Notes: a model not told the origin generated them from the sequence alone. 64,000 nt of DNA from an uncultured Gammaproteobacteria bacterium (GCA_964502815.1 CAZCXV010000003.1:4694-68693), one strand, 5' to 3'. Shown: positions 1 through 51,601, numbered from the stretch's first letter. Made by a program: numbers and translations.

Positions 1-95
1 TGGCTAATAAAAGCGAGAAACGAGCAATCGAGGGTGATAACGCTATACAGCTCAACCTTTTTGAAACATTTAAGGAACGTAAACGACTAGAGGTA

Positions 96-578
96 ATGCG
101 AATGGAGGTAAGACTTAACAAACGACAGAAAATAGGACAGCTTTTCCGTACGCTTGGTATTACATCTGACTTGACCCTAAAAAATCTATTTAGCACAACA
201 ATCGCTCAAAAGGTCTTGCTTCATTATCTTGACGAACTTGAAAGCAAACGGTTACCCTTATTAGACTACAAACAGACAAACTCCAACTCATTGTTGACAG
301 ACCTTATAATTAATAACCCGAATATCGGTATACGAAAAACGATACAACTATTTGGATTAAAACAGGCATTTGATAGTACAACCCCTCGTGACCTTAGGAG
401 TATGTTTGGCAGATACGGTCAAAGAAGTTGGTACAGGCTGGTTGCAGAAGCCAAAACAATAAAGCTACCAAATACTAAAAGCCCTCTTGGGATAGTCCGT
501 GAACATTTGACCCGTTTTGAACCCTTAAAACTAGTTGATTTTCAACAACAAATGTTAAATAATGATAAATATAACTAA
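96..578 (+). CDS. Hypothetical protein (element-associated)
   Basis: 160-aa ORF with no recognisable motif. It is immediately upstream of, and overlaps, the Xis-like gene. Confidence 0.35.
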   Translation: MRMEVRLNKRQKIGQLFRTLGITSDLTLKNLFSTTIAQKVLLHYLDELESKRLPLLDYKQTNSNSLLTDLIINNPNIGIRKTIQLFGLKQAFDSTTPRDLRSMFGRYGQRSWYRLVAEAKTIKLPNTKSPLGIVREHLTRFEPLKLVDFQQQMLNNDKYN

Positions 579-756
579 TATGGCAGAAGAACAATACTAT
601 TCTATTGCAGAGGTCTCCAAGATATTAAAGGTCGCTTATTTGACTGTTTACCGATGGATACAGGCTAAGCACCTTGTTGCTCTGAAAGCAGGCAAACAAT
701 ATAGAATTAAAAAGGAAGATTTAGAGACATTCCTTAGAAGATATAGGCATAAATAA
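562..756 (+). CDS. Excisionase/MerR-like helix-turn-helix DNA-binding protein
   Basis: 64-aa protein. YSIAEVSKILKVAYLTVYRWIQ...KAGKQYRIKKEDLETFL matches the excisionase-family HTH pattern. Confidence 0.6.
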   Translation: MINITNMAEEQYYSIAEVSKILKVAYLTVYRWIQAKHLVALKAGKQYRIKKEDLETFLRRYRHK

Positions 757-757
757 T

Positions 758-1360
758 ATGTATTGCAATAATTGTGGAAAACATAATCCAGAGGACAGTA
801 AATTTTGTAAATACTGTGGGGCTGAAATCGTAAGCGTGTCAGCAGACCATAAAGCCGACAGTCGTGCTCAGTCAGAAGTCAAACCATCAGAAGCAGAGCC
901 TACTGGAAAGAATAAGGCAGGACTAACTGGCTGGTTGGCATTAGTTGGATTGGGCTTGATTGTTGGGGTTTTTATACAAGGATATGGGGTGTTGGAATAT
1001 TTGCCATTATTGTCTGAAGTTTACGAAATTCCAGGGTATTCAACTCTTCTTCAACTTGAGTTCCTTTGTAGCATCATATTTACTGGATTTACTGCATATC
1101 TTCTCTACTTATATCTCAAAAAAAACGAGAAGTTTCCAAAGTACTATTTCGTATTCCTAATCGCATCAATCATTTATGTAATACTTGACCATCTGTTTCT
1201 CGCTTCGTTAAGTGCCCCTACCACAGAACTGCAAAATCTTATCAACGACGGTTTATCAGAAAACATGGCAACAGTTAGTAGAACAGTCATAACTTCCATA
1301 ATTTGGGCTTTGTATATCAAAAAATCAAAACAGGTTAAAGCAACATTTACCAATAAATAA
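758..1360 (+). CDS. Zinc-ribbon domain membrane protein (paralog 1 of 5)
   Basis: N-terminal MYCNNCGKHNPEDSKFCKYCGAEI, i.e. CxxC-x10-CxxC, followed by about 4 hydrophobic helices. Confidence 0.6.
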   Translation: MYCNNCGKHNPEDSKFCKYCGAEIVSVSADHKADSRAQSEVKPSEAEPTGKNKAGLTGWLALVGLGLIVGVFIQGYGVLEYLPLLSEVYEIPGYSTLLQLEFLCSIIFTGFTAYLLYLYLKKNEKFPKYYFVFLIASIIYVILDHLFLASLSAPTTELQNLINDGLSENMATVSRTVITSIIWALYIKKSKQVKATFTNK

Positions 1361-1362
1361 AT

Positions 1363-2049
1363 ATGTACTGTAATAAATGTGGTAAACAAATTGAAGAAGA
1401 TAGCATTTTTTGTCAATTCTGTGGCAACAGGATGGCTGACAATAGCCCAGAGCCACAATCAGAAAAAGCCTCTCAGACAGAAAATGTTTCTAAAAAAACA
1501 GTTAATAAAAGTAAATCTGATTTATTGTGGGATAAATTCGCAGAGGTTTATGATGCCAAGGACGACGAGCGAGAAAAATTTAATCAATTATCCTCAGAGT
1601 ACATTTGGGATTTAATTGAACGATTGTACACAAACGCATTTGAAACGTTTATACAGGAGAAAAAAAGCGAGTTAAATTCTCAACCATATAAGGCAATCGA
1701 GGCTTTGAAAAATCTGTATTTATATTCTGTTCTTGGCGGATATAAGTTATGGATTGCAGAAGCCTTATTGAAAGATAGGCAACTAGAAAAGTTTAAGCCT
1801 TTTGACATAGATAAATTTGTAGAAGAATGGAAAGCTAATGATTTCCAAAAAGTAATGAAGAGTATTTCTGATGAAATGAGTGTTTGTATGACGAGGTATC
1901 TTGAACACAGAATAAGTAATTTTCTGGAAAACTCACCTTCAATAAAAGACATACCAAATTCCACAATGGAAGAATTGAAAAGCTCAATAACTTTTCAGAT
2001 TATAAATGGTTACATTGCAGGAGAAGTAGAAGCAAAATTTAGAAAATAA
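1363..2049 (+). CDS. Zinc-ribbon domain protein (paralog 2), soluble C-terminal domain
   Basis: N-terminal MYCNKCGKQIEEDSIFCQFCGNRM. The start is 3 nt after the previous stop. Confidence 0.6.
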   Translation: MYCNKCGKQIEEDSIFCQFCGNRMADNSPEPQSEKASQTENVSKKTVNKSKSDLLWDKFAEVYDAKDDEREKFNQLSSEYIWDLIERLYTNAFETFIQEKKSELNSQPYKAIEALKNLYLYSVLGGYKLWIAEALLKDRQLEKFKPFDIDKFVEEWKANDFQKVMKSISDEMSVCMTRYLEHRISNFLENSPSIKDIPNSTMEELKSSITFQIINGYIAGEVEAKFRK

Positions 2050-2050
2050 T

Positions 2051-2587
2051 ATGATTTGTAATAACTGCCAAACAGAAATACCAGATAACGCAAAGTTCTG
2101 TAATAAATGTGGACAAAAAACAGACGATGCGAATAGGCCTATCTCTAATCCGAAAAAGAATGGGAAATCTATACTAACGGGTGTGGTTTCTGTTATCGTA
2201 TTTTTATTGGCATTTGGTGTGGTTCGCTACCTCACCCAGGAAGTTATTTCACCTTCAGGAAGTAGTACCTCAAAGGCAGAACTTATTAGTCAGACCGTCA
2301 AAGAAGTTAAAGCCAGTATGTCATTACCAAGTCAAGTAGATGAAGCAACAACATTAGTTGATATTACGGCAGAGTTAAACGCTATTCGTTATCACTATGT
2401 TCTTTCAGGTCTTGATACGAATAACTTATCAAACGACTATTTGAAAACCTATTTAGGTACAAGTATTTGTCAAAACAAGGACACTAAAGCACTTCTTAAT
2501 CAAGATATTAATATGGAATATTCATATTCAGTCAAAAGCTCAACCAAAAAATACTTTATAAGTTTTACGAAAACAGATTGTAACTAA
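2051..2587 (+). CDS. Zinc-ribbon domain protein (paralog 3), single TM plus extracytoplasmic domain
   Basis: N-terminal MICNNCQTEIPDNAKFCNKCGQKT, with a TM segment VVSVIVFLLAFGVV. Confidence 0.6.
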   Translation: MICNNCQTEIPDNAKFCNKCGQKTDDANRPISNPKKNGKSILTGVVSVIVFLLAFGVVRYLTQEVISPSGSSTSKAELISQTVKEVKASMSLPSQVDEATTLVDITAELNAIRYHYVLSGLDTNNLSNDYLKTYLGTSICQNKDTKALLNQDINMEYSYSVKSSTKKYFISFTKTDCN

Positions 2588-2596
2588 ATAACTCTT

Positions 2597-2977
2597 ATGG
2601 ATTGTAATAATTGCCAGAACACAAACAGTAAAGATGCAAAGTTTTGCGTACATTGTGGCTCTGAACTTTCAAAAGGCAAAATTGAGGTTGAGGAAGGCTC
2701 AGTTGATAGATATTTTGCAGAACAAAAAGCAAATTTTATTGAAGAAGCTAAAAGACTCGCTGATGGTGAGATGAAACAAGGTGTTGTTTGGTTTGTTATT
2801 GCATTAGTAATAACTTTTGGAAGTTATCTTTTTGCATCCGAAGGTGGAACTTATTACGTTTTTTGGGGTGCGATGATTTACGGCATTTACAGATTAATCC
2901 GAGGCTTTTGGTACAAACTTAATCCAAAATCGCTTCTCAACAAAGCAGAGGAAGAAGCAAAAAAAGAAAAACAATAA
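2597..2977 (+). CDS. Zinc-ribbon domain protein (paralog 4), 2 TM
   Basis: N-terminal MDCNNCQNTNSKDAKFCVHCGSEL. Confidence 0.6.
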   Translation: MDCNNCQNTNSKDAKFCVHCGSELSKGKIEVEEGSVDRYFAEQKANFIEEAKRLADGEMKQGVVWFVIALVITFGSYLFASEGGTYYVFWGAMIYGIYRLIRGFWYKLNPKSLLNKAEEEAKKEKQ

Positions 2978-2978
2978 T

Positions 2979-4298
2979 ATGTATTGTAAAAAATGCGGTA
3001 AGGAAAATCCTGAAAGAAGCAAGTTCTGTCAGCATTGTGGAATACAGTTTAACGAACGAACATCTTCAGCCAATACTGCCAATGAGAGTAGTTCAGTAAA
3101 TGAATACATAGCCGTAAACAACCCTCCATATCCCTACGTTATTTCAATATGGAAACTTATAATAATGTGTGTCTTTACTTTCGGTTTTTATGAAATCTAC
3201 TGGTTTTATAGGCAATGGAAATCCTTCAATACAGTTAATAATTTGAAACACGGAAGTTCTACTCTTTGGGTTTACTCACTCTTTGCTCCTCTATCCTCAT
3301 ATTCATTATTCAAACACATTTCAGGTAAGGTTAAGGAAACAAACAACGACAAAGGGATAGAAGCAGGTGGTCTGGCAATTGTATACTTTTTTCTCACACG
3401 ATTTTGGCTGGGGTTCATACCTCTAATTTCTGTCCAAAATAAAATTAATCATTATTGGGAAAAGAAGTACGGCAATAAGCTTGTTAGGTCTAATTTTGGG
3501 GTTTGGAACTGGATTGTTGTTGTTGCGGTAGCATTAGTGCTCATTTATGCTATCTCTTCCGAAGAAACCACCACTAGCACAACATCAGATACCTCCACAA
3601 GCACATCAGTTGTCGAAAAATATAATCAAGAAGAGATTGTCTCATCTGTAGTAAATATTTTCTGTCCGAGTATTGTTGAAGGAGAAGAAGGAACTGGAGG
3701 CTCTGGAACGATAATTACCAAAGAAGGAATAATTCTTACCAATTCTCATATTATTCCTCAAGATGAGAAATATATTAACGTTGATGAAAAAGGTTGTTTA
3801 GTTATACTACCAAATTCAAGCACAGGACAACCTGAAGAAATGTATTGGGCAACTCCAATAGTTCTTCCTGAAATTAGCGACACATACGACTTAGCATATT
3901 TATCTATTTATGCCGCCTATTACGACGAGGAAAGTAAGGAATATAAAGGAAGTTATCCTCGCACCTTTCCTGCTTTTGATGACAGTAGTAGATGTGTTGA
4001 CGAAAACGTAAAACTTGGAGAAAAAGTGACCATATTCGGATACCCTTCTCTAAGTGGGGGTTATTCTTTAACTGTAACAGACGGACTTGTTAGTAGCTTC
4101 CCTGGTGAAGGTCTTATTGTTACATCTGCGAAAATTAGCGAAGGCAACTCTGGTGGTTTGGCTGTAGATGCAAAAGGTTGTATGTTGGGCATTCCTTCTA
4201 TGATTAGCTATGACGAAACTGAAAGTTTGGGTGTAATTATTTCATCAGATTTAATTGTTAAATTTTCAGATGAAGTCTCAAAATATTTAGAACAATGA
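2979..4298 (+). CDS. Zinc-ribbon / DUF4234-like TM / trypsin-like serine protease fusion (paralog 5)
   Basis: N-terminal MYCKKCGKENPERSKFCQHCGIQF. A YEIYWFYRQW TM region and an S/T-rich linker follow. The C-terminal domain carries GNSGGLAVDAKGCMLGIPS, close to the chymotrypsin-fold GDSGGP motif. Confidence 0.6.
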   Translation: MYCKKCGKENPERSKFCQHCGIQFNERTSSANTANESSSVNEYIAVNNPPYPYVISIWKLIIMCVFTFGFYEIYWFYRQWKSFNTVNNLKHGSSTLWVYSLFAPLSSYSLFKHISGKVKETNNDKGIEAGGLAIVYFFLTRFWLGFIPLISVQNKINHYWEKKYGNKLVRSNFGVWNWIVVVAVALVLIYAISSEETTTSTTSDTSTSTSVVEKYNQEEIVSSVVNIFCPSIVEGEEGTGGSGTIITKEGIILTNSHIIPQDEKYINVDEKGCLVILPNSSTGQPEEMYWATPIVLPEISDTYDLAYLSIYAAYYDEESKEYKGSYPRTFPAFDDSSRCVDENVKLGEKVTIFGYPSLSGGYSLTVTDGLVSSFPGEGLIVTSAKISEGNSGGLAVDAKGCMLGIPSMISYDETESLGVIISSDLIVKFSDEVSKYLEQ

Positions 4299-5767
4299 AA
4301 GCAATAATTTTAGCCAGAGTATCAGATAAAAAACAGGACTCCAACGAAGCTCAAATTCTTCGGGTTTCAGATTACGTTAAAAACAAACAACTAATTGTTT
4401 GGAAAACGTACGAAATAGAAGAAAGCTCAACAAAAGGTGATAGAGAAAAATTTCAAGCTGTAGTTGAAGAAATTCAACAAGCCAACGAGCCTATTGCCCT
4501 TGTTGTAGATACCGTAGATAGACTTCAAAGAAGCTTTAAGGAGTCCGTTCAACTGGACGACCTACGTAAAGCAGGCAAACTCGAAATTCATTTTTACAGA
4601 GAAAGTTTAGTCATTAACCAAAACTCGAATAGCTCTGACCTACTTCGATGGGATATGGCTGTAATGTTTGCTAGAAGTTATGTTCTTCAATTAAGCGATA
4701 ACGTCAAAAGAAAACAAGAGCAAATGCTTAGAAGTGGTATTTACCCAAGCCAACCTCCTTATGGTTACAAGCGGGTTCCTGTTGCAAAAGACAAAACCGA
4801 AATAGTTATTGACGAGTATGCTTCAAAAATTGTCCAAAAAGCCTACGAATGGTACGCAACGAGTAGTTTTTCAATGGAATTATTACGAGAGAAACTAAAA
4901 AAGGAATATGGCGTTAATTGGTCAAAAGGTTTTATAGATAAGGTACTGAAAAACGACTTTTATTACGGTCTTATGACTTGGAATAAAGGGAAATCAAACG
5001 AGAAAACATACACGCACAATTATCCTCATATAATCGAGAAACCTTTGTTCGACCAAGTACAGAAAATAAAAGCAGGATTTAACAAGAAACCTTTTAAGTA
5101 CGCAGGTAAACCTTATATCTACCGAGGATTACTGAGATGTGGTCATTGTGGACTAGCTGTGACCCCAGAAAAGCACAAAGGGCACGTCTATTACCATTGT
5201 ACTCAATACAACGGCAAACACGGGGCTGAATGGCTACGAGAAGAAACAATAACAGAACAAATAGGTAATGTATTTAAAAAGCTACAAGTCCCTGATTACA
5301 TATTAGAGCAGATAGTAACTTCCCTACAGGTTAGTCACGAAGGCAAGGCAGATTTTCGAGAAACCCAATACAAGCAACTTACAGAAGAACATGAGGTATA
5401 TACCAAAAGATTAGAAAAAATCTACATCGATAGACTGGACGGGCGTATTACTGACAATGAGTATGACAAGTTCTATCAGTCATTTCGTGACAAGATATCT
5501 GAAATTGATACCCGACTGGCAATACTCCAAGAAGCAGACGACAACTACTACATCACGGCTAGATACCTGCTAGAACTGGCAAATCGGGCTTATGAGCTTT
5601 TCAAAAGTTCAGAAGTTGAAGAAAGAAGGCGGTTAATTAAGCTCGTGCTATCGAACCTTAGAGTAGAAGACAAAATAGTGCGATTTGATGCGATAAAACC
5701 ATTCGACACAATCTTAAATTATGCCGATAGTCAACTATGGCTCCCCGAACAGGATTTGAACCTGTGA
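4295..5767 (+). CDS. Large serine recombinase (resolvase/invertase N-domain, recombinase domain, C-terminal zinc ribbon)
   Basis: MKAIILARVSDKKQ carries the catalytic Ser region. CGHCG...YYHC forms the zinc ribbon. At 490 aa it is the size of phage-type serine integrases. The ATGA start overlaps the upstream gene. Confidence 0.85.
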   Translation: MKAIILARVSDKKQDSNEAQILRVSDYVKNKQLIVWKTYEIEESSTKGDREKFQAVVEEIQQANEPIALVVDTVDRLQRSFKESVQLDDLRKAGKLEIHFYRESLVINQNSNSSDLLRWDMAVMFARSYVLQLSDNVKRKQEQMLRSGIYPSQPPYGYKRVPVAKDKTEIVIDEYASKIVQKAYEWYATSSFSMELLREKLKKEYGVNWSKGFIDKVLKNDFYYGLMTWNKGKSNEKTYTHNYPHIIEKPLFDQVQKIKAGFNKKPFKYAGKPYIYRGLLRCGHCGLAVTPEKHKGHVYYHCTQYNGKHGAEWLREETITEQIGNVFKKLQVPDYILEQIVTSLQVSHEGKADFRETQYKQLTEEHEVYTKRLEKIYIDRLDGRITDNEYDKFYQSFRDKISEIDTRLAILQEADDNYYITARYLLELANRAYELFKSSEVEERRRLIKLVLSNLRVEDKIVRFDAIKPFDTILNYADSQLWLPEQDLNL

Positions 5768-5812
5768 CCAATCGCTTAACAGGCGAGTGCTCTACCGCTG
5801 AGCTATCGGGGA
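5738..5812 (-). tRNA. tRNA-Asn (anticodon GTT), CCA encoded
   Basis: I folded the cloverleaf manually. The acceptor stem is TCCCCGA/TCGGGGA and the D-stem GCTC/GAGC. The anticodon loop is CTGTTAA and the T-arm is ACAGG-TTCAAAT-CCTGT. Confidence 0.85.
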
Positions 5813-7121: not shown

Positions 7122-8651
7122 TTACTGTAAATATTGTCTTTTCTCAACCGTTATTTTTCCAATTTCCATAGTTTCAAGTATTTTAGTGTTGGCAAAGTTT
7201 TTCATCCACTTTCCATATCTGTCTATATCTACAACGGGTTCTTTTATCAAGAAAAGTAGTTTGTCGCAACCAAGAGTTGGGGTGTTGTAATTAAACTCTC
7301 CTCCTGGAATATAAACATACTTGTGGGACTTTGGATACACTTCATAGTGGCAGGGAACGTGACCATATTTGTTTTTTCCTCTCCACCAAAATAGATAGTC
7401 ATAGGGATAATCAAAGAAAGAGTTGGTCATATAAATATAGGCATTAAAGCCATTTTCTTCGTTTTTTGAGTAAATCCAGTCAATAACTTGTATCTGATTA
7501 ATCAGAAGCCCAGGATCATTAGAAGGCTTTAGATACTCTATATATCTAGGGATAAAGATTAATAGTTGACTTACAAAAATAACCGCAAGTATCGGAATTG
7601 AGACGTACTTTTTAATTTGCGACAAGAGCATAAAAAGGCTAATAAGTATTAAGGTTGGCAAGAAAACTGTATGCCAGTCTTTCCAACCTTTGTTGGTGGA
7701 GAAGAAAAGATAAGAAACTATGAAAAGAAAACTAGTAAGATAAATAAAACCAACTACATAGCTGTTTTTCTTTTTTGCTCTAGTAAAAAAGAAAATTACT
7801 ATTGTTAGTATCACCAAGCTAACAACTAGGCTTTGGGGGAAAATGGAATCGGTTAGTATTTTGCCAAAATTGGTTAGGTTAGCAAAAAAGTTAGTTCCAG
7901 AAAATATGCCTCTGGCTGATTCCAGTTGATCCGAGTTTCTAAAAACTGAGATTGCCTGTTTTGCTACAATTAAACCGGTAAGCCCCGGGAGTGTATAGGT
8001 GGTAAGGAGATAATTTTTGATTGTTAACCTCTTTTCTATGGTTGACCACAAGCCAAAAGCTGCAAAGAAAATAAACAACGCTGCTGCCGAAGCTAAATCT
8101 GCATTGAAAGAAAGAATAACTGGAATAATACAAAGATAATAATATTTTTTGCTTTTTGTTTCTAAAAATAAAACCAAAAGAAACAAAAGTGTTACTGCTA
8201 GAAAAACAGTTGGAAAGGGATTAAAGGCATATCTGGAGGTGTTAAAAAATAGCCAGAAGAACTGTAAGGCGATACTTACTAGATATGCATAGGTTTTTAA
8301 AATGTGTTTATGGAAAAACAAAAAAACAATTACCATCAGGCAGGTATTTAGGAGAATTAACACAAATACTCCACCTATTGGATGGCCTTGGAAAAGAAAA
8401 TAGCCAGGGGAAAGAAAGTAATACCATAAAGGTCCTGTATAAATGCCTGCAATTGTTGTTTCAGGACCTTTTTTGATTAGTTGTTGTCTTTCGACTATTT
8501 CCCGAACGTAAACTGCGTCCCTGCCTTGATCCATAGTGAAGAAGAAATTATTTCCCAGAATTGGTATGATGCGAATAGTAAATGAAACTAAAACTAAAAA
8601 TATCAAAAACAACTTGGTTTTTGTCGGTAATTGTTTTACTTGGTTTAGCAT
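7122..8651 (-). CDS. Polytopic membrane GT-C-like glycosyltransferase family protein (paralog A)
   Basis: TM1 is followed by a DQGRD loop motif, many TM helices and a C-terminal soluble domain. It is homologous to the divergent neighbour. Confidence 0.5.
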   Translation of the reverse strand: MLNQVKQLPTKTKLFLIFLVLVSFTIRIIPILGNNFFFTMDQGRDAVYVREIVERQQLIKKGPETTIAGIYTGPLWYYFLSPGYFLFQGHPIGGVFVLILLNTCLMVIVFLFFHKHILKTYAYLVSIALQFFWLFFNTSRYAFNPFPTVFLAVTLLFLLVLFLETKSKKYYYLCIIPVILSFNADLASAAALFIFFAAFGLWSTIEKRLTIKNYLLTTYTLPGLTGLIVAKQAISVFRNSDQLESARGIFSGTNFFANLTNFGKILTDSIFPQSLVVSLVILTIVIFFFTRAKKKNSYVVGFIYLTSFLFIVSYLFFSTNKGWKDWHTVFLPTLILISLFMLLSQIKKYVSIPILAVIFVSQLLIFIPRYIEYLKPSNDPGLLINQIQVIDWIYSKNEENGFNAYIYMTNSFFDYPYDYLFWWRGKNKYGHVPCHYEVYPKSHKYVYIPGGEFNYNTPTLGCDKLLFLIKEPVVDIDRYGKWMKNFANTKILETMEIGKITVEKRQYLQ

Positions 8652-10117
8652 TTAGACTTTTAAGTATACAAGACAATAATATAATAATTGGCTTTGATCA
8701 GGCCAGAGACTTATTTTCAGCCAAAACAATTTGGACACATAAAGACTTAAAAATAATCGGACCAACTGCAGGCAATAATACTGACCTACACCATGGCATC
8801 TTGTGGAGTTATTTTATTTTGCCTCCAATTATTCTTTTCGGGGGTAACCCTTATTTTGTATCTTTTTGGAATAGCCTATTTAATTTGGGGGCTGTAGTGT
8901 CAATTTATTTCCTGGCCAAGTCGGTGTTTAAGTCAAGTAAGACAGGATTAATTTCGGCATTTTTGGCTGCAGTCTCAATATATTTCGTTGAGTATTCAAG
9001 TTGGCTGTCAAATCCCTCGCCAACACTTCTAACTGTTCCACTGTTTTTCTTTGGAGTATGGAAATATGCGAGAGAAAAACATTGGGGACTAGTGGTAGCC
9101 TTTATCTCTCTGGGATTGTCTATCCAGTTTGAGCTTTTCTTTATTTACCTTATCCCAATTTTTTTACTTTTGTGTTTTATTTTGAAGTTAAAGTTTCCTG
9201 ATTTAAAAACTTTAACATTTTCAGTTATGGGTTTTTGTATTGTGACTTCAACGATGATTGTTACCGAAATTAAATATAATTTTTCTGGAATAGCTTCAAT
9301 ATTGGGTGCAGGTAGTGATGTCGGTGGAGGAGAAGACAAGCTGGCAAATGTGCCAAAGTATGTAGACAGATTTTTGTTAACTTTTTCCCAAACTCTTTTT
9401 CCACAGAGTTTGGCTTTAGGAAGAATTGTTGGCATATTAACAGTTTTGGCATTCTTATTTTTAGTAATTAAAAATTTTAAAGACAAGAAAAAGGTAAAGC
9501 CGTATGTTTTTATTCTTGTCTATCTTCTTTCCTCTTCAATTATGCTTTTTCTTGGCTATCACGATGCGCCTTGGTTTTTAATTGGCCTGTCTCCAGCAAT
9601 TATTGTTTCAGTAGGTTTTCTGATGTCAAAGATTAATAATAATTATCTTTTGGGGTTAGTTTTATTATTAATTGGAATACTAAACTACCAAACTCTTAGT
9701 GGGACTAAAGGGGTAGGGCAGCCGCTATTGGGGCCAGACAGAGCTTCAATAATGGCAAAACAGCTGGAAACAATTGATTACACCTATCGAGCATCAGAAG
9801 GCGAATCGTTTGCAGTAAATACGCTGACCAACCCTTTGTATATTAATGCAGTTTGGGGTTATCACTATGATTGGTTTGACAAAATTTATGGCTACAAGCC
9901 TTCTTGGGGAGGAGGGGATCAGTTGTATCCATACAACACATTAGAGAGTATGACCGGCAGGGAAAAATATCTTTATTTAATATTTGATACAACACCAAGA
10001 GTTCCCTATGTGCATACACTTTTGATGCAAAAATGGGCAAATGAAAGGAGTGAACTAATTGAAGAAAAGGGATTTGGAGGAATAAAAGTGGAAAAGCGGC
10101 TTTTTACCAGTAGATGA
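8582..10117 (+). CDS. Polytopic membrane GT-C-like glycosyltransferase family protein (paralog B)
   Basis: The GFDQARDLF loop after TM1 aligns with the TMDQGRDAVY loop of paralog A, and the overall architecture is shared. Confidence 0.5.
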   Translation: MKLKLKISKTTWFLSVIVLLGLAFRLLSIQDNNIIIGFDQARDLFSAKTIWTHKDLKIIGPTAGNNTDLHHGILWSYFILPPIILFGGNPYFVSFWNSLFNLGAVVSIYFLAKSVFKSSKTGLISAFLAAVSIYFVEYSSWLSNPSPTLLTVPLFFFGVWKYAREKHWGLVVAFISLGLSIQFELFFIYLIPIFLLLCFILKLKFPDLKTLTFSVMGFCIVTSTMIVTEIKYNFSGIASILGAGSDVGGGEDKLANVPKYVDRFLLTFSQTLFPQSLALGRIVGILTVLAFLFLVIKNFKDKKKVKPYVFILVYLLSSSIMLFLGYHDAPWFLIGLSPAIIVSVGFLMSKINNNYLLGLVLLLIGILNYQTLSGTKGVGQPLLGPDRASIMAKQLETIDYTYRASEGESFAVNTLTNPLYINAVWGYHYDWFDKIYGYKPSWGGGDQLYPYNTLESMTGREKYLYLIFDTTPRVPYVHTLLMQKWANERSELIEEKGFGGIKVEKRLFTSR

Positions 10118-11065: not shown

Positions 11066-11905
11066 TTATGGCTTTTTCAGTAAATGCAAATCTTTAGAGT
11101 TTTTTGGAAGAATTACTTTTTTCCCTGTTGTTTGTTCAATTTCTTTTCTGGCATTTCCTGCAATTGAGCCACCCTTAATTGCAACTTTTCTGTTCTCATT
11201 AAAACTTTCTGGTTTGAGAGATTTTGATATTTCAGTAGTTGAAGTTTCAGCAAGCATATTGAGAACCAATTCAAGGTTTGTCATGTTGTCTCTTAAGTTT
11301 TCTTTTTTCAAATTTTTGTAGTTTTTGTATTCTCTAGTTTTCATTCCAGCCCAGGCAAAAGTAATATCGTCAGTAAGGATTGCAAATTCGCCTGAAGTAT
11401 TAACACCCCTTTCTTCCCATTCATCTGTCAAATCTTTTCTGATATCAATGCTTTTTAGTCTTAAATTGACCCATTCCTTGGAGTAGCCCTTCTTTAGGTA
11501 ATAGTTCATTGCTCTTTGGATGGCTTTTTCTGGATCATCTACTTCTTCGACTCTTTCATAGCCAACGCGAGCCAGCCACAACTTAAATGGTTCTGCATTA
11601 GGAGAGGGGATAGATTGAATTATTCTAAACATTGTTTCTGTGTCTGCTGCATCGGTTAGGTAATATTTACCATCTGAAGATTGCATTTTCAGTTGTACGA
11701 TTTTTTCGTACGACTGACTACCTTCATTTTTCAGTTTTGTTTTTAGATCTGACCAATATCTTTTAGGAACACTGCTTCCAGAAAGAATGCCTATAACATC
11801 AATCACAGAAAAATACCATTCTTCTTTGATATGGTCCCAATATCTTCTTATCTTGTTTCCTTCAAACAAAACAATTTTTGCCGAATCTTTATGTTTACTA
11901 TCCAT
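11066..11905 (-). CDS. Bro-N / DinD-like DNA-damage-inducible family protein (paralog 1)
   Basis: The N-terminal region FEGNKIRRYWDHIKEEWYFSVIDVIGIL is Bro-N-like. The central block FRIIQSIPSPNAEPFKLWLARVGYERVEE recurs in the 41179..42018 paralog. The C-terminal region is similar to the dinD gene at 63005. Confidence 0.65.
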   Translation of the reverse strand: MDSKHKDSAKIVLFEGNKIRRYWDHIKEEWYFSVIDVIGILSGSSVPKRYWSDLKTKLKNEGSQSYEKIVQLKMQSSDGKYYLTDAADTETMFRIIQSIPSPNAEPFKLWLARVGYERVEEVDDPEKAIQRAMNYYLKKGYSKEWVNLRLKSIDIRKDLTDEWEERGVNTSGEFAILTDDITFAWAGMKTREYKNYKNLKKENLRDNMTNLELVLNMLAETSTTEISKSLKPESFNENRKVAIKGGSIAGNARKEIEQTTGKKVILPKNSKDLHLLKKP

Positions 11906-13475: not shown

Positions 13476-13964
13476 ATGGTAACAAATAGATTTGATATTA
13501 AAAACGTAAATAAAAGGGATATTTTGGCGGGTCTTTTGGTTTTGATTGTTGCAGGTATAGTTGTCTACATGTTTGTCAAACCAAATGTTCCAAAAACAAA
13601 CATCACTTTACCGACAGTAAGACCAACAGAAAAAATTGAAAACAAATTTAACTTGCAAATCCCAGACGACGTTGAAAGGATCGATTTAAACGATGTTTTA
13701 GATGGAACTGGGTCTGGCATTGCCACCAGAAATGAAATCCTAGTCGATCTTGCCGATCCAGAAACGGGAAAATTCTATCAAGCTTGGCTTGAGGACAACT
13801 CTGGAAAAAGAATTTCTTTAGGCAAGTTGGTTATTGAAAAGGGTGGCTGGCTTGTTTCCTACAATTCAAAAGCTTCTCCAGAGTACAAAAAAGTAATTGT
13901 TAGTTTGGAAACCAAGTTTGATAATATCCTAGAAACCAAGGTTCTTGAAGGAAGCTTCAAATAG
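13476..13964 (+). CDS. Hypothetical membrane-anchored protein
   Basis: N-terminal TM helix and no motif. Confidence 0.35.
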   Translation: MVTNRFDIKNVNKRDILAGLLVLIVAGIVVYMFVKPNVPKTNITLPTVRPTEKIENKFNLQIPDDVERIDLNDVLDGTGSGIATRNEILVDLADPETGKFYQAWLEDNSGKRISLGKLVIEKGGWLVSYNSKASPEYKKVIVSLETKFDNILETKVLEGSFK

Positions 13965-13990
13965 ACTCTCAAGACTGCTACAATTAACTT

Positions 13991-14704
13991 GTGAATGTTA
14001 AATTTGCTTCTTTAGTGTTTTCTCTTTTTGCTGTTGGTTTTGGTTTTCTTTTTTTTCCAACACCAACTTATGCAAGTTTGGTAAACATTAAGCCTGATGG
14101 AAAAGTTATAGTCAATATATTAGGGGCAAAAGACTCAATTGCGATGTATGTTCCAAAAAGGCAGTCATTATCGGTTAATGGTGAGAACATCGAAATCTTT
14201 AGGGATGGAGAAACCTTCAAATTAGCCCTAAATGACAGCAATCTTGATATCACGCAGTACCAAGATAATTTAATTGAGATAGAGGAAACGCCTGAAAAAG
14301 AGAGAGTCAAAATATCTTTGGTTGACGGCAAGTTTAAGATCGAGCAGGAAGGTATTGCGGTTTTGACCTCTTTTCCAATCGAAATTGATCCATCGGTTAG
14401 GCAAATTTCTGTAAAAACAGAAACTGGTAAGAAATATTTGGCAATACTTCCAAAAGAAGCCTCGGCAATTCTCCTTCGTTCAAAGTTGGTTGATAAGGTA
14501 GATGCTAATTGGAATTTGTTGGAGGAGCAGGATGGGGTTTTGGTTTACAAATTAAAGGGCAATAAAACTGTAAACATCTTCAATATTAGTAAATATTCAA
14601 GCGATATCGAAACCCAAGTATCCGCAGCCGATGGAGCGGTCATTGGATCAAATGAACCAGTTTGGTTAAAAATTCTTTCCTTTTTCCTGTCCAGCAAGGG
14701 CTAA
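13991..14704 (+). CDS. Secreted hypothetical protein
   Basis: Signal-peptide-like N-terminus FASLVFSLFAVGFGFLFF. Confidence 0.35.
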   Translation: MNVKFASLVFSLFAVGFGFLFFPTPTYASLVNIKPDGKVIVNILGAKDSIAMYVPKRQSLSVNGENIEIFRDGETFKLALNDSNLDITQYQDNLIEIEETPEKERVKISLVDGKFKIEQEGIAVLTSFPIEIDPSVRQISVKTETGKKYLAILPKEASAILLRSKLVDKVDANWNLLEEQDGVLVYKLKGNKTVNIFNISKYSSDIETQVSAADGAVIGSNEPVWLKILSFFLSSKG

Positions 14705-14713
14705 TGAAAAACT

Positions 14714-14962
14714 ATGAAAGTAACGCTTTACTCCACAGATACTTCCAAAAATAGCCAGCTTCTCAAAAACTATTTTAACGAGAAAAAAGTTCCTTTTTTA
14801 GAAAAACAAATCAATAGAAATGAATTTTTTCAAAGTGAGTTGGCAAAAATTGCCGCAGGTTTTTCAGGAGTACCCGTTGTTTTGATTCAAAAAGAGGGTG
14901 ATAGCAGTCAAATTGTGATAGGATTTGACAAAGGCAAGATAAATAGTATTCTAGGGCTATAA
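14714..14962 (+). CDS. Glutaredoxin/NrdH-like thioredoxin-fold protein lacking CxxC
   Basis: KVTLYS...GVPVVLIQKEG...IGFDKGKINSILG follows the Grx topology with its conserved VP and GGxdd-like motifs. There is no cysteine at the active-site position. Confidence 0.45.
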   Translation: MKVTLYSTDTSKNSQLLKNYFNEKKVPFLEKQINRNEFFQSELAKIAAGFSGVPVVLIQKEGDSSQIVIGFDKGKINSILGL

Positions 14963-14981
14963 TTTTAGTTATTTTGAACTA

Positions 14982-15638
14982 ATGATTTTTATTAACTTTA
15001 AAACATATCAACAAGCAACGGGAGTTAATGCAGTTTATTTAGCCCAGATATTTGAACAAGTTTCCCATGAAACCGGAACTAAAATCGTTGCCGTCGTTCA
15101 GGCCACAGACATTAAAGAAGTCTCTCAGAAGGTAAATATTGAAGTCTGGGCTCAAATTATAGATCCAGTGGAATATGGAGCCCACACAGGAGCAATTTTA
15201 CCCGAGGCCGTTTTGGAAGACGGCGCTCAGGGAGCATTTTTGAATCATTCTGAAAACAAAATGGAGATGGAAAAGATAATGCTCGCCGTAAAACGGGCAG
15301 ACGAAATTGGATTGAAGACTTTGGTCTTTGCTGGAGATATAGATGAGCTAAAACAGATAATCAAACTTTCTCCAACTTACATTTCATATGAGCCAGCAGA
15401 ACTTGTGGGTAGTGTGTCAGTTTCTGTTTCCCAGGCCAAACCAGAAGTAATAAAGGAAGCTGCCGAGGTTGCAAAAGATAAAGGAATTCCTCTAATTGTT
15501 GGCGCAGGGATTCACTCGGCGGAGGATGTTAGGAAAAGTCTTGACTTAGGAGCTTCTGGAATTGTCGTGGCGACTAACATTGTTAAGGCAGAAAATCCAA
15601 AACAGGCACTTCTGGATTTAATTGAGGGATTTAGATAA
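14982..15638 (+). CDS. tpiA: Triosephosphate isomerase (short, archaeal type)
   Basis: NFKTY, GAHTGA and NHSENK motifs in a protein of about 218 aa. Confidence 0.8.
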   Translation: MIFINFKTYQQATGVNAVYLAQIFEQVSHETGTKIVAVVQATDIKEVSQKVNIEVWAQIIDPVEYGAHTGAILPEAVLEDGAQGAFLNHSENKMEMEKIMLAVKRADEIGLKTLVFAGDIDELKQIIKLSPTYISYEPAELVGSVSVSVSQAKPEVIKEAAEVAKDKGIPLIVGAGIHSAEDVRKSLDLGASGIVVATNIVKAENPKQALLDLIEGFR

Positions 15639-17586
15639 AGTTGACATGAAATTTTCGAAACTAGTCATTAGTATTTTTCTATTGTTTGTTGTATTTCTGG
15701 CTTTCCCTAAAAACGTATCTGCAGAAAAATCATACAGTATTGATTCTGTGAATATTAATCTGAATGTTAATAAAGACGGATCGATGGACGTTGTTGAGAC
15801 AAGACAATATGACTTTAGCGGTGATTACACTTTTGCCTATCAATATTTAAACAAGTTTGGCAACCCTAAAGATTCTTCTGGCAGAAAAGAGGAATATCAA
15901 ATGAGCGGGTTTAAGATTTGCGATGAAGCTACTTGTTATAGACAAATTGCTCCTAGTGTAGGAAAAAGCTTAGATGTGGCAGAAAAAAGGATTCTTAATT
16001 CCGGGACTTACTATGTTGAGGAATTGACAGACAGGTATTATATTCACTGGTTTTACTCGGCCAAAAATATTTCTAAAATATTCAAACTTTCCTATAAAGT
16101 AAATAATGCCATCACTCTCCATAAAGATATGGCAGAGCTTTATTGGAAATTAATTGGTGATGATTGGGAAATAAGGCAGGAAAATATAACTGCCAGTGTA
16201 GTTTTTCCGCTTGACAGTGATGGAACAAATATTTTTGCTTGGGCACATGGACCACTAAACGGCGTTGTCAGCATTCCTGACAAGAAAACAATTAATTACT
16301 CTTCACCTTTTTTGCAGCCAGGAAACTTTTTTGAAGCCAGAGTTATCTATCCCAAACAAGCCTTTGTTGGTGGCTTGCAGGGTAATTTGGTTATAGAAGA
16401 CATAGTTCAGGTTGAAAATAAATTTATTGCTGATACCAAGACAAAACTTGGCTGGCAAAAAGCAAAGGCAATGGGTATTGTTTTAGTGTCACTTATCTTG
16501 CTTGTTTTTCAGTTATTCCAGTTTGTTAAAGTTGGCAAACTTTTTATCAAGCATGGCAGAGATGTAGTTTTGCCAGAAATTAATTTGTCGGGCAGACTGT
16601 GGGATCCGCCAAGCGATATTAATCCAACGCAATTGGAACAGCTTCTAAACGGCAATAAAACTTTGTCGCCTAAGGCTTTTACTGCGACAATTCTTTCTTT
16701 GGTTAGAAAGAGATTTTTGAAGATTAAAAGAAGCGACAAAAAAACAGGCTTGATATTTAAGGATTATACATATTCACTAATAAAAACTGGCAAGGGAGAA
16801 TTAGAATTGGATAGCGTTGAGAAAAAAGTATTAGACTTTGTTTTTGATAGTGTTGGAATAGGTGATGACGAAGTAAGTTTGGATGAAATTGTTAGCTACT
16901 GTAAATCTTCTAGAGTCTCCGCACACGCTTTCTTTAAAGGTCTTGAAGAACAAGCCTTCAAAAACAATCTGTCTCAGGGCTATTTTGAAACGGCTTCACA
17001 CGAGTTGGTCAAAAATGGAACCTATATTCTAAGTAATATTGTCCCATTTGTGCTACAGATTTTATTGATTAGTATTTTTGTCCCAATATTTGCAATTTCA
17101 GAAAACAGCTTATCTAGTGTGATTTTAATAGTAAGCGCCGTTTTCTCTTTTTGCCTATTTATAATATCTGTCTTCTTTACCGTTTTTGGAGAGAAAAGAA
17201 CACTTAAAGGAAGTCAAGAGACGGCTGGGTGGAAAGCTTTCAAGAAACACTTGGAAGAGTACAAAATTACCAAGATGTATCCAATTGATTCAATAATTTT
17301 GTGGGAAAAGTATTTGGTTTATGGAACCCTTCTTGGTGTATCTGCAAAAGCTTTGTCACAATTTCCGGTGAAGTTTAGTAAGGCAGATAGTTCCACAGCT
17401 GCTGTTTATTGGGGTGGAATTCAAGGGTCTAACTTTTCTAGTGGCATTACGTCAATAAATTCAGCAATTTCTTCCATCTCTACATCCGTCTCATCAAGTT
17501 ATGGAGCAAGTGGAACCGGTTCGTCAGGAGGATCCTCTGGAGGTGGTGGCGGAGGGGGAGGAGGAGGCGGTGGTGGTGCTGGATAA
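15622..17586 (+). CDS. DUF2207-family membrane protein with C-terminal poly-Gly tail
   Basis: Signal peptide, then an SIDSVNINLNVNKDGSMDVVETRQYDFSGDYTFAY domain. TM helices follow, and the C-terminus is SSGGSSGGGGGGGGGGGGGAG. Confidence 0.65.
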   Translation: MRDLDKVDMKFSKLVISIFLLFVVFLAFPKNVSAEKSYSIDSVNINLNVNKDGSMDVVETRQYDFSGDYTFAYQYLNKFGNPKDSSGRKEEYQMSGFKICDEATCYRQIAPSVGKSLDVAEKRILNSGTYYVEELTDRYYIHWFYSAKNISKIFKLSYKVNNAITLHKDMAELYWKLIGDDWEIRQENITASVVFPLDSDGTNIFAWAHGPLNGVVSIPDKKTINYSSPFLQPGNFFEARVIYPKQAFVGGLQGNLVIEDIVQVENKFIADTKTKLGWQKAKAMGIVLVSLILLVFQLFQFVKVGKLFIKHGRDVVLPEINLSGRLWDPPSDINPTQLEQLLNGNKTLSPKAFTATILSLVRKRFLKIKRSDKKTGLIFKDYTYSLIKTGKGELELDSVEKKVLDFVFDSVGIGDDEVSLDEIVSYCKSSRVSAHAFFKGLEEQAFKNNLSQGYFETASHELVKNGTYILSNIVPFVLQILLISIFVPIFAISENSLSSVILIVSAVFSFCLFIISVFFTVFGEKRTLKGSQETAGWKAFKKHLEEYKITKMYPIDSIILWEKYLVYGTLLGVSAKALSQFPVKFSKADSSTAAVYWGGIQGSNFSSGITSINSAISSISTSVSSSYGASGTGSSGGSSGGGGGGGGGGGGGAG

Positions 17587-20863: not shown

Positions 20864-21470
20864 TGATGGAAGGCTCATCAAGAAAATCTCCTACTTTGGC
20901 TTTGCCGATGCAGATTCCGATGACCCTCTCTATAAAGAAGCCTATGATGTTGCCAAATACTTAACTGAAAGAGGCTTTATGGCAATAAATGGTGGCGGAC
21001 CTGGAGTAATGCGAGCTGTATCTGAGGGGGCAAGAGATGCTGGAGGGGAACCATTAGCAATTACTTTCTATCCCAAAAATATAACCAACTTTGAAGGCAG
21101 GGATCCTAATAATCCTGCTAAAAAAGAAATTGTCTGCAAAAATTATTTAGAGAGAACCTTGAAACTCCTTGAGGAGGGGGACGTATATGTAATTTTTAGG
21201 GGAGGCACTGGAACAATATCTGAATTTGGCATGGCTTGGGGACTTGCAAGGCTTTATTTTGGCCACCACAAGCCTTTAATTTTGTATGGCGATTATTGGC
21301 ATGAAATTGTTACTGCTTTCATTAGGACTATGAGAATCAGACCTGAAGATTTGAAAGTCTACAAAATAGTCAATACTCCACAGGAGGTGCACGAGGCAAT
21401 TGGGGAATTTGAAGCCGCAATTCAAAGACAAATGAATGTTCACGGTGAAGAAAAAGCATTTCAATTGTAA
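20811..21470 (+). CDS. LOG-family (TIGR00730) Rossmann-fold protein; true start uncertain
   Basis: INGGGPGVMRAVSEGARDAGG and IFRGGTGTISEF match the PGGxGTxxE motif. The in-frame ATG lies 53 nt inside rpe. Confidence 0.7.
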   Translation: MQVNLPKILKNLLKLPASDGRLIKKISYFGFADADSDDPLYKEAYDVAKYLTERGFMAINGGGPGVMRAVSEGARDAGGEPLAITFYPKNITNFEGRDPNNPAKKEIVCKNYLERTLKLLEEGDVYVIFRGGTGTISEFGMAWGLARLYFGHHKPLILYGDYWHEIVTAFIRTMRIRPEDLKVYKIVNTPQEVHEAIGEFEAAIQRQMNVHGEEKAFQL

Positions 21471-48702: not shown

Positions 48703-48774
48703 GGGCCTGTCGTTCAACGGTTAGGACGGGTCTCTTATAAAGACCAAACGATAGTTCGACTCTATCCAGGCCCA
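48703..48774 (+). tRNA. tRNA with anticodon UAU (nominally Ile, reading AUA)
   Basis: Manual cloverleaf: acceptor GGGCCTG/CAGGCCC, D-stem GTTC/GGAC, anticodon stem GGTCT/AGACC, loop CTTATAA, T-arm GATAG-TTCGACT-CTATC, 4-nt variable loop. Confidence 0.7.
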
Positions 48775-48808
48775 CAGATTTGAAAAAAAAGGATTGTCGG
48801 GGATGGCA

Positions 48809-51261: not shown

Positions 51262-51291
51262 TAACTTAAACTCCACTTATTTAGTTTTGTG

Positions 51292-51361
51292 TTGCGGGGC
51301 TGGGAGTTGAACCCAGCCTGAAAGATTATGAGCCTTTCGTGCAGCCGTACACTACCCCGCA
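51292..51361 (-). tRNA. tRNA anticodon CAU (elongator Met or Ile2-lysidine type; not initiator-like)
   Basis: Acceptor TGCGGGG/CCCCGCA (fully paired). Anticodon stem AAAGG/TCTTT with loop CTCATAA. T-arm CTGGG-TTCAACT-CCCAG. Confidence 0.7.
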
Positions 51362-51478: not shown

Positions 51479-51550
51479 GCCAGGGTAGCTCAATGGTGGA
51501 GCAGCAGATTCATAAACTGCAGGTTAAGAGTTCGATCCTCTTCCCTGGTA
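51479..51550 (+). tRNA. tRNA anticodon CAU (Met; G1-U72 wobble at the acceptor end)
   Basis: Acceptor GCCAGGG/CCCTGGT, D-stem GCTC/GAGC, anticodon loop TTCATAA, T-arm AAGAG-TTCGATC-CTCTT. Confidence 0.7.
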
Positions 51551-51601
51551 CTTAAAGATTAATTCCTTTCTTTTTAGCTTCGAAAGACTTAGAATACAAA
51601 T

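Follow-up and report, generated by a model that had tools for sequence, protein, structure and literature searches.

A gene for a large serine recombinase (LSR) lies near the left end of a 64,000-nt stretch of contig CAZCXV010000003.1, referred to here as the window, and its 3' end runs into a tRNA-Asn gene on the opposite strand. ARAGORN and Rfam both called this tRNA-Asn(GTT) on the minus strand (5738/5741-5812; 70.7 bits versus a gathering score of 29). The 490-aa LSR matches the Pfam families Resolvase (residues 3-144), Recombinase (177-259), and Zn_ribbon_recom (276-323), while R8 and S10 are invariant in a family alignment of 26 sequences. Its open reading frame (ORF) closes with 30 nt, including the stop codon, that read as the CCA end, acceptor stem, and T arm of the tRNA in reverse complement. 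Residues 1-484, up to W-L-P, are encoded by the element itself, and the last six (EQDLNL) are an antisense reading of the tRNA. A look-up of the exact 490-aa sequence returned no record, and G+C is uniform over the whole window at about 35-38%. An earlier, preliminary description had noted the 30-nt overlap and assigned the locus to a mobile element placed at tRNA-Asn by the LSR; the overlap is borne out by the ORF and tRNA calls, and the mobile element by the ends, core, and tail described below. We conclude, with a probability of roughly 85%, that window positions 1-5746 belong, as its right part, to an integrative, plasmid-like element of 9,794 bp from a groundwater bacterium of the Patescibacteria (candidate phyla radiation, CPR). 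Its main feature, missed by the preliminary description, is an attachment site, attP, that lies inside the recombinase ORF.

The association with tRNA genes extends over the family. Databases list about 1,900 relatives of the LSR; its 120 best matches are at least 56% identical, and the named sources among these are Patescibacteria. A scan of one genome per GTDB species yielded 337 loci, and 80 were fetched for junction work. In 57 of these 80 loci, the 3' end of the LSR gene is overlapped by an opposite-strand tRNA in a constant register (Asn in 25, Asp in 10, Glu in 8, Arg in 8, and Gln in 6, the non-Asn loci being mostly from Dependentiae), and thus the overlap is not due to chance. The C-terminal consensus of the family, WLPR.DSN, arises when acceptor stem and T arm are translated in antisense. 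In the junction alignments, the nucleotide sequence of the P arm is conserved, and similarity between elements ends directly after TGGCTC(CCC). Compared with its closest relatives, the window shows 91-94% identity over the last 150 nt of the LSR gene, 64-74% over the tRNA body, and about 52% past the tRNA. Because identity drops at the tRNA in this way, the tRNA is host DNA, with the crossover at its extreme 3' end.

Seven further loci carry only a tRNA-Asn 3' half that ends at the anticodon. A crossover in the anticodon loop, as such halves might indicate, was ruled out, as Rfam confirmed group I introns in the two of the seven that were scanned and scored. ARAGORN misses tRNA-Asn genes that are split in this manner; they occupy 11495-11697 in L010 and 11496-11723 in L014, split in the anticodon loop, and also lie to the right of the LSR in L006, L012, L015, L033, and L078. 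Group I introns that interrupt tRNA genes of Patescibacteria have been published (PMC13011429). As a separate observation, the recombinase of L058 adjoins just a 26-nt 3' fragment of tRNA-Asn (11446-11472), and a complete tRNA with no recombinase beside its 3' end is located 9.5 kb to the right (21030-21102), a layout that insertion of a second, classical island in the T loop would be expected to leave.

When loci were compared in pairs, about 90 nt stood out several kb upstream of the LSR for a conservation far above that of the neighbouring sequence. This left-end block starts with the core GGCTCCCC; its translation, LVNAFKNREIEFGFSLQNIQTVFETF...stop, continues the frame in which the LSR reads ..Q.WLP (WLP-LVNAFRNREIEFGFSLQNIQTVF...). 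With a profile built from seven copies, this P' arm was found upstream on the same strand in about 45 loci. Because the block continues the LSR frame, attP lies within the LSR gene, and integration shifts its last ~36 aa (30-40 codons) to the opposite end of the element. The ends of elements at 23 Patescibacteria loci have 5-10 nt in common and delimit 5.8-11 kb; when LSR and block are rejoined, an open C-terminus of 31-45 aa results in all 23 reconstructed attP sites. Diversity by codon position is 0.41/0.25/0.53 among 41 distinct copies of the tail, which marks it as a genuine protein segment under selection. Since all 23 tails are open, most of them orphaned at attL, and coding constraint is evident, selection still acts on the joined gene, and the pattern carries signs of continued cycling of elements. 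A database search with the tail peptide returned 13 small fragments only. Many tails end in ..QPAYA, QPAFA, or LAVA, and one may speculate that these endings resemble a degradation tag. Other long C-terminal tails (..L.EIRTFF.., ..ARWDDFR..EYPELT.., ..IIQAFQDLRYIGELRQRW..) occur in P0009, P0021, P0024, P0035, P0055, P0058, P0085, P0101, P0109, and P0118 and, to the right of the LSR, in L018, L024, and L040; the family members that bear them are not beside a tRNA. This suggests several alternative types of P' arm and tail within the LSR family.

The core co-varies with the tRNA that is occupied: it reads TGGCTCCCC at Asn, TGGCGTCCCC at Glu, TGGCGG at Asp, TGGTGT at Arg, and ATGGCTG at Gln, the non-Asn cores coming from Dependentiae. 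Because the shared core changes with the tRNA type, the crossover is best placed at the discriminator/CCA end. At the left junctions of Patescibacteria, positions 1-2 of TGGCTCC are host-derived and variable, whereas G3 is constant, and in Dependentiae the identity between left and right may stop after position 5. On these grounds, we infer that strand exchange takes place within positions 3-5, corresponding to C74, discriminator 73, and nucleotide 72 of the tRNA.

The window element itself could be followed to its left end. Contig L118 (13,899 nt; groundwater metagenome ERZ909576), found via the first cargo protein, is 100% identical to window positions 1-5743 and reaches 8,156 nt further left (window coordinate = L118 coordinate - 8156). 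A match to the tail model (nhmmer E 3e-31) at L118 4099-4201 is in frame with the LSR, and the left core TGGCTCCCC occupies L118 4100-4108, that is, window -4056 to -4048. Together with the right core at 5738-5746, this gives the element length of 9,794 bp, of which the window holds the right-hand 5.7 kb. The other attachment site thus lies beyond the left window edge, as the preliminary description had anticipated. Its proposal that an excisionase-type helix-turn-helix gene opens the block has to be revised, as the window opens with 578 nt from the 3' part of a Rep-like gene and another 4 kb of the element lie to the left of it. The LSR of the free form, rebuilt from the two ends, has 519 aa. 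No known RNA was found at the left flanks.

The two ends of the window element have only the 9 nt of TGGCTCCCC in common, which bears directly on the mode of integration. The preliminary description had the element regenerate the tRNA 3' end and pointed to an upstream repeat of the tRNA-Asn 3' segment (ccccgaacaggatttgaacctgtgacc). A search of the window with up to 3 mismatches returned the tRNA itself only, and blastn-short with each tRNA and its flanks against the 10 kb upstream gave no such repeat in about 55 loci; matches to the right are D-arm matches to neighbouring tRNA genes. With a crossover at the discriminator/CCA and ends that share TGGCTCCCC only, regeneration of a tRNA end does not apply, and the repeat test would wrongly reject a real element because of this short identity. 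The same observations decide against a classical tRNA island, which would carry a copy of the tRNA 3' end, cross over in the T or anticodon loop, and leave a displaced fragment of 20-45 nt at its far end. An integrase that adjoins the tRNA 3' end, converges on it, and extends its ORF into it would fit such an island, as would the loci of the L006 type, in which tRNA homology seemed to stop at the anticodon loop. However, that stop is due to the group I introns, the LSR ends are far more similar than the tRNA bodies beside them, the tRNA 3' repeat is missing, and the circular form described below is free of tRNA sequence. We therefore give a classical island next to no chance.

A circular form of the element family was detected by scanning a metagenome collection with a degenerate pattern for P arm, core, and P' arm in uninterrupted succession, which returned 29 contigs. 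L085 (7,698 nt) and L097 (7,702 nt) come from separate assemblies and are 99.99% identical in different permutation; terminal overlaps of 123 and 127 nt mark their circularity, and neither carries a tRNA. Both carry an intact LSR of 540 aa, which in L097 reads through TGGCTCCCCC into ..LKDLFCNHELEFDISLADLKIAFENL... Behind it come genes for two small membrane or secreted proteins, c6, a small ORF, SpoVG-like and Rep-like genes, an HTH_17 gene, and a methyltransferase with its partner, before the LSR is reached again; the order is that of the integrated form, opened at the core. Judged by their sequences, L085 and L097 represent the free form of the family.

These data also speak to the possibility that the LSR is a fixed, domesticated chromosomal recombinase, for example for inversion or resolution, surrounded by ordinary chromosomal neighbours. 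The very high conservation among the 120 best matches, the constant position, and the lack of recognisable transfer genes are what such a gene would show. In contrast, LSRs that are 94% identical are accompanied by wholly different cargo (zinc-ribbon genes in the window element versus type II restriction-modification in L001), flanks from different hosts are unrelated, core and tail mark discrete ends, and a circular form exists. Tandem arrays with decayed members and the spread over two unrelated phyla and five tRNA types are likewise at odds with a resident gene, and we consider domestication highly improbable.

For the integrative element that we favour instead, the ends, the core, the in-frame tail, the circular form, the family-wide tRNA association, and the arrays can all be read from the DNA itself, and they suggest the following cycle. 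The free form would be a small circle that encodes a single LSR of ~519 aa, with attP within the 3' end of the LSR gene. For integration, the LSR is predicted to pair attP with the extreme 3' end of tRNA-Asn and to exchange strands near the discriminator/C74, within TGG/CT/CCCC. By analogy to established LSR biology, LSR dimers on attP and attB would introduce 2-nt staggered cuts, rotate, and religate. The tRNA body would stay intact as the host's own, whereas the CCA and trailer would now be derived from the element. The LSR would keep residues 1-484 and gain six tRNA-encoded residues, resulting in 490 aa, while its native tail LVNAFRNREIEFGFSLQNIQTVFDTFHLPAMEYAS would be carried to attL, 4,056 nt before the window start. 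In the integrated state, the LSR 3' end would be convergent with tRNA transcription, and excision would rebuild the full-length gene. Variable cargo occupies two slots, one to the left of the replication module (AbiTii here) and one between the HTH gene and the LSR (zinc-ribbon/protease genes here). Newcomers would enter on the tRNA-proximal side of residents, giving rise to arrays with decaying older members. The features of the element and its junctions are compiled in Table 1.

Table 1. Features of the integrative element and its target, left to right along contig L118 and the window (window positions unless marked L118), followed by the junction sequences
Feature	Position	Strand	Length	Basis or remark
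Tail WLPLVNAFRNREIEFGFSLQNIQTVFDTFHLPAMEYAS	L118 4100-4216		38 aa	including W-L-P
Opposite-strand gene			243 aa
AbiTii-domain protein			348 aa
c6			237 aa
Small ORFs			53 + 73 aa
SpoVG-like			98 aa
Rep-like gene (p377), 3' part	3..578	+	191 codons of 387 aa	cut by window edge, which lies inside the gene
HTH_17 (MerR/excisionase-type) DNA-binding protein	562..756	+	64 aa	Pfam HTH_17 E 2e-14; PHROG excisionase families
Zinc-ribbon gene 1, DUF2569 membrane domain	758-1360	+		Pfam
Zinc-ribbon gene 2, no further domain	1363-2049	+		Pfam
Zinc-ribbon gene 3, weak QSregVF	2051-2587	+		Pfam
Zinc-ribbon gene 4, transmembrane segment	2597-2977	+		Pfam
Zinc-ribbon gene 5, DUF4234 + Trypsin_2 (trypsin-like peptidase)	2979-4298	+		Pfam
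LSR, integrated form	4295..5767	+	490 aa	ORF + Pfam
attR: P arm (LSR codons ..KPFDTILNYADSQL), core, B' arm (tRNA acceptor + T arm)	5690..5790	.		extent approximate; junction alignments, 80 loci
Core TGGCTCCCC, common to left end	5738..5746	.		same 9-mer at L118 4100-4108, then tail
tRNA-Asn(GTT), host, intact	5738..5812	-		integration target, attB B' half; ARAGORN + Rfam
attR sequence				..GATAGTCAACTATGGCTCCCCGAACAGGATTTG..
attL sequence				..CTCGTCAGGCTTGGCTCCCCTTGGTAAACGC..
attP, predicted				..GATAGTCAACTATGGCTCCCCTTGGTAAACGC..; junction ..GATAGTCAACTATGGCTCCCCTTGGTAAACGCATTTAGG..
Post-excision site, predicted				..CTCGTCAGGCTTGGCTCCCCGAACAGGATTTG..

The Rep-like protein p377 is conserved over the family with 377-390 aa; an ORF listing of the window gives just an internal-ATG fragment (96-578) of its gene. 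It has no match in Pfam, including Rep_trans, in NCBIfam, or in a PDB profile search, and a single weak PHROG match to a replication protein (E 0.005). Only a fold search provided a lead to its identity, pointing to a pT181-type rolling-circle initiator. On the basis of this modelled fold, replication of the free circle is most likely started by a rolling-circle initiator of the pT181/Rep_trans type. Compared with RepC/RepD of pT181/pC221, p377 is longer, has an extra C-terminal helical domain, and lacks the Pfam Rep_trans match. Short, iteron-like repeats, specific to each locus, are located downstream of c6. Between L010 and L011, identity is 97.6% over a stretch that starts 20 nt upstream of c6 and extends ~40 nt into the tRNA (anticodon loop); their left cargo differs, and the L010 tRNA has a group I intron at the anticodon loop. 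The HTH_17 gene directly follows the Rep-like gene also in Patescibacteria loci and in the circular element L097, and its product is a candidate recombination directionality factor or regulator.

All five cargo ORFs between 758 and 4298 open with a Zn_Ribbon_1/DZR motif at residues 2-24, and their remainders are unlike one another. The zinc-ribbon paralog array of the preliminary description stands insofar as five N-terminal zinc ribbons are present, but the paralogy is limited to this ribbon of ~25 aa. PADLOC matched no defence system for this cargo, its sole hit being the protease domain. The zinc-ribbon cassette is also present in L021 with ~69% nucleotide identity, and the same slot is filled by a type II restriction-modification system in L001, L002, and L097.

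This gene content likewise bears on a possible origin as a small prophage or phage satellite, for instance an inovirus-like one. Such an origin would be in line with the weak replication-protein match of p377, with a weak PHROG match of one cargo protein to a superinfection-exclusion family, and with the use of rolling-circle initiators, and sometimes serine recombinases, by inovirus-like elements; CPR inoviruses and inoviruses with serine recombinases have been reported (PMC6813254). Yet the window element and the circle L097 are without capsid, terminase, Zot/pI morphogenesis ATPase, or a coat-like gene set, and the cargo consists of defence-type or membrane proteins. No virion or packaging genes were found with Pfam and PHROGs in the window part, with Pfam in the L118 genes outside the window, or with NCBIfam in the L097 ORFs, which were scanned in part; the same scans of the window part, L118, and L097 recognised no transfer genes. 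Moreover, the 2.9 million contigs of IMG/VR contain no relative. We thus regard a phage origin as improbable. No tyrosine recombinase (Phage_integrase) was detected in the window part, in the left cargo of L118 through the Rep-like gene, or among the Pfam annotations of L001-L003 and L118.

Returning to the integrative, plasmid-like element, its left neighbourhood points to repeated insertions at this tRNA. Directly left of attL, L118 retains 63 aa from the C-terminus of a further LSR of this kind (ORF 3914-4216), a remnant that reads into the tail of the window element. Further left are a hydrolase gene and a Fic gene, the latter directly followed by a degenerate P'-like site at 1640 (TGGCTCCACCTGATGGAC). 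Because of this remnant and the degenerate site, the tRNA-Asn locus is, as far as its sequence tells, an accretion array with the newest element next to the tRNA and older, decayed ones behind it. A second LSR family (515-594 aa, ~30% identical) has the same W-L-P core and the same conserved tail and is found in tandem to the left of elements (L002 2490-4160, L006 1-1548, L018 1811-3502, L027 1535-3319). P-core-P' junctions like the one left of the window element recur at other loci, in some cases with an LSR of this second family. An element with two recombinases resembling CcrAB was ruled out, as the circular element has one, and the upstream LSRs sit at the P-core-P' junctions of tandem neighbours. 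Two MEGAHIT contigs from the same strain and metagenome (start of L113, end of L118) break at the att junction with an overlap of 127 nt (window 5617-5743), L118 terminating exactly at TGGCTC; this break may reflect population heterogeneity at the site. In L117, only a 320-nt recombinase remnant remains beside the tRNA, preceded (L117 1-119, versus window 5447) by sequence 89% similar to the tRNA-Asn flank in L058 20942-21006. This arrangement suggests a deletion scar rather than a clean excision.

Several points weigh against our interpretation. All evidence is computational, with nothing experimental behind it. The empty-site comparison put forward in the preliminary description yielded no vacant attB in the same or a related strain, as all five recovered contigs, L117 among them, carry an LSR end. 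Circular contigs might in principle derive from tandem copies, and in 16 of the 80 loci the LSR is not at a complete tRNA (mostly no tRNA, one fragment, and three cut by the contig or match). The central dinucleotide could be at positions 3-4 or 4-5, and some candidates (GC, CG) are palindromes, an awkward property where LSRs have to control orientation. In addition, the B half-site is not conserved among Patescibacteria loci, and the tandem junctions imply insertion into a resident attR; we know of no canonical LSR that does so. In an AlphaFold model of a full-length relative, the tail has low confidence with pLDDT values of 43-64. The model of the relative P0094 contains long helices at 334-381 and 387-413.

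By domain content, the recombinase belongs to the LSR family, and the element operates in the manner of a serine-integrase island. As in the LSRs of phiC31, Bxb1, A118, and SPbeta, resolvase and recombinase domains are followed by a zinc ribbon and a long helical hairpin, and the element ends share a very short identity instead of long repeats. Solved LSRs match the window LSR in the catalytic domain only. Staphylococcal cassette chromosome (SCC) elements, which use CcrAB at the rlmH 3' end, have in common with it a target at the 3' end of a housekeeping gene, variable cargo between conserved modules, and tandem accretion; however, the NCBIfam models CcrA, CcrB, and XisF score far below their cut-offs (50.8 bits versus 900 for CcrB). 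Unlike in these LSR and SCC systems, the target here is the tRNA discriminator/CCA, attP lies in the element's own LSR gene, a single recombinase is present, and a Rep-like gene is carried along.

A similar logic is realized in tyrosine integrases of the SSV1 type, in which attP lies in the integrase ORF and a tRNA is the target, so that integration splits the gene and excision restores it. The likeness in attP placement and tRNA target is one of logic, not of membership. The SSV type has tyrosine recombinases, long tRNA-derived repeats, and a larger split that inactivates the gene, whereas here a bacterial serine LSR loses ~36 residues and keeps all recognisable domains. In the mycobacteriophages BPs and Brujita, studied by Broussard et al. 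in 2013, attP reportedly lies in the 3' end of the repressor gene, and tRNA integration is said to truncate the repressor C-terminus and to alter its stability or activity. There, a repressor is truncated and the integrase is of the tyrosine type, while here the serine integrase itself is shortened. Integrative and conjugative elements of actinomycetes (AICEs) such as pSAM2 and SLP1 are small (about 10-20 kb), use tRNA 3' ends, bear cargo, and are capable of autonomous replication, which in pSAM2 is of the rolling-circle type (PMC2440964). Tycheposons of Prochlorococcus are likewise small elements with cargo at tRNA 3' ends, with tyrosine integrases in 910 of 937 (10.1101/2020.12.28.424599). 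Both differ from the present element in that they almost always use tyrosine integrases and have tRNA-derived repeats, AICEs in addition possessing FtsK-like transfer genes, none of which were seen here. Islander-type tRNA islands combine a tyrosine recombinase with a displaced tRNA fragment, and neither was found. The element thus lacks the defining features of the SSV, mycobacteriophage, and AICE/tycheposon systems. Serine integrases are regarded as avoiding tRNA genes. In a survey from 2020, 14 of 297 serine integrases were at tRNA genes, a usage termed previously unreported and unproven (PMC7192596), in agreement with the preliminary description, which had called it the less common case. 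We found no paper that deals with this LSR family, with attP in an LSR ORF, or with LSR elements from Patescibacteria or Dependentiae in a search outside of which most subscription journals fell.

Beyond the element, the window encodes a tRNA-Ile with the anticodon TAT, unusual in bacteria (48703-48775), and a divergent pair of tRNA-Met(CAT) genes 118 nt apart (51291-51361 on the minus and 51479-51551 on the plus strand). Two divergent genes for large membrane proteins of ~510 aa each (7122-8651, minus; 8582-10117, plus) overlap by 70 nt at their 5' ends, the latter with a weak match to the glycosyltransferase family PMT_2. A 279-aa Bro-N protein, a type that is often phage-associated, is encoded at 11066-11905 on the minus strand (Pfam annotation of the identical contig L113). 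Among the relatives, L002 has a SufB gene split by an intein with a LAGLIDADG endonuclease (13539-16109).

The findings point to systematic use of tRNA genes by an LSR family, with at least 337 GTDB loci, ~1,900 proteins, five tRNA types, and two phyla. Both phyla, Patescibacteria and Dependentiae, consist of ultra-small bacteria that depend on hosts, and little is known of their mobile elements. The recombinase C-terminus WLPR.DSN together with an orphan tail upstream provides a bioinformatic signature for both element ends. For annotation, small ORFs on orphan tails and recombinases ending in "DSN" are to be regarded as integration by-products. Serine integrases are in demand as tools for genome writing, and an LSR family that recognizes the tRNA acceptor and T arm and is apparently permissive for its second half-site would be of interest for this purpose.

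A recombinase gene that spans its own att site implies a change of the enzyme that depends on topology. Tentatively, we propose that the topology of the element sets the LSR form, full-length with the ~36-aa tail on the circle and tail-less when integrated, which could constitute a switch in a family that recognizes tRNA ends. If the tail is needed for integration, stability, or restraint of excision, its loss would have a regulatory effect, and the serine integrase would possess a built-in switch of direction or dosage. Such a topology switch would be at work in hundreds of genomes of Patescibacteria and Dependentiae, operated by a serine integrase family that would read the conserved acceptor/T-arm end of tRNAs and tolerate almost any other half-site.

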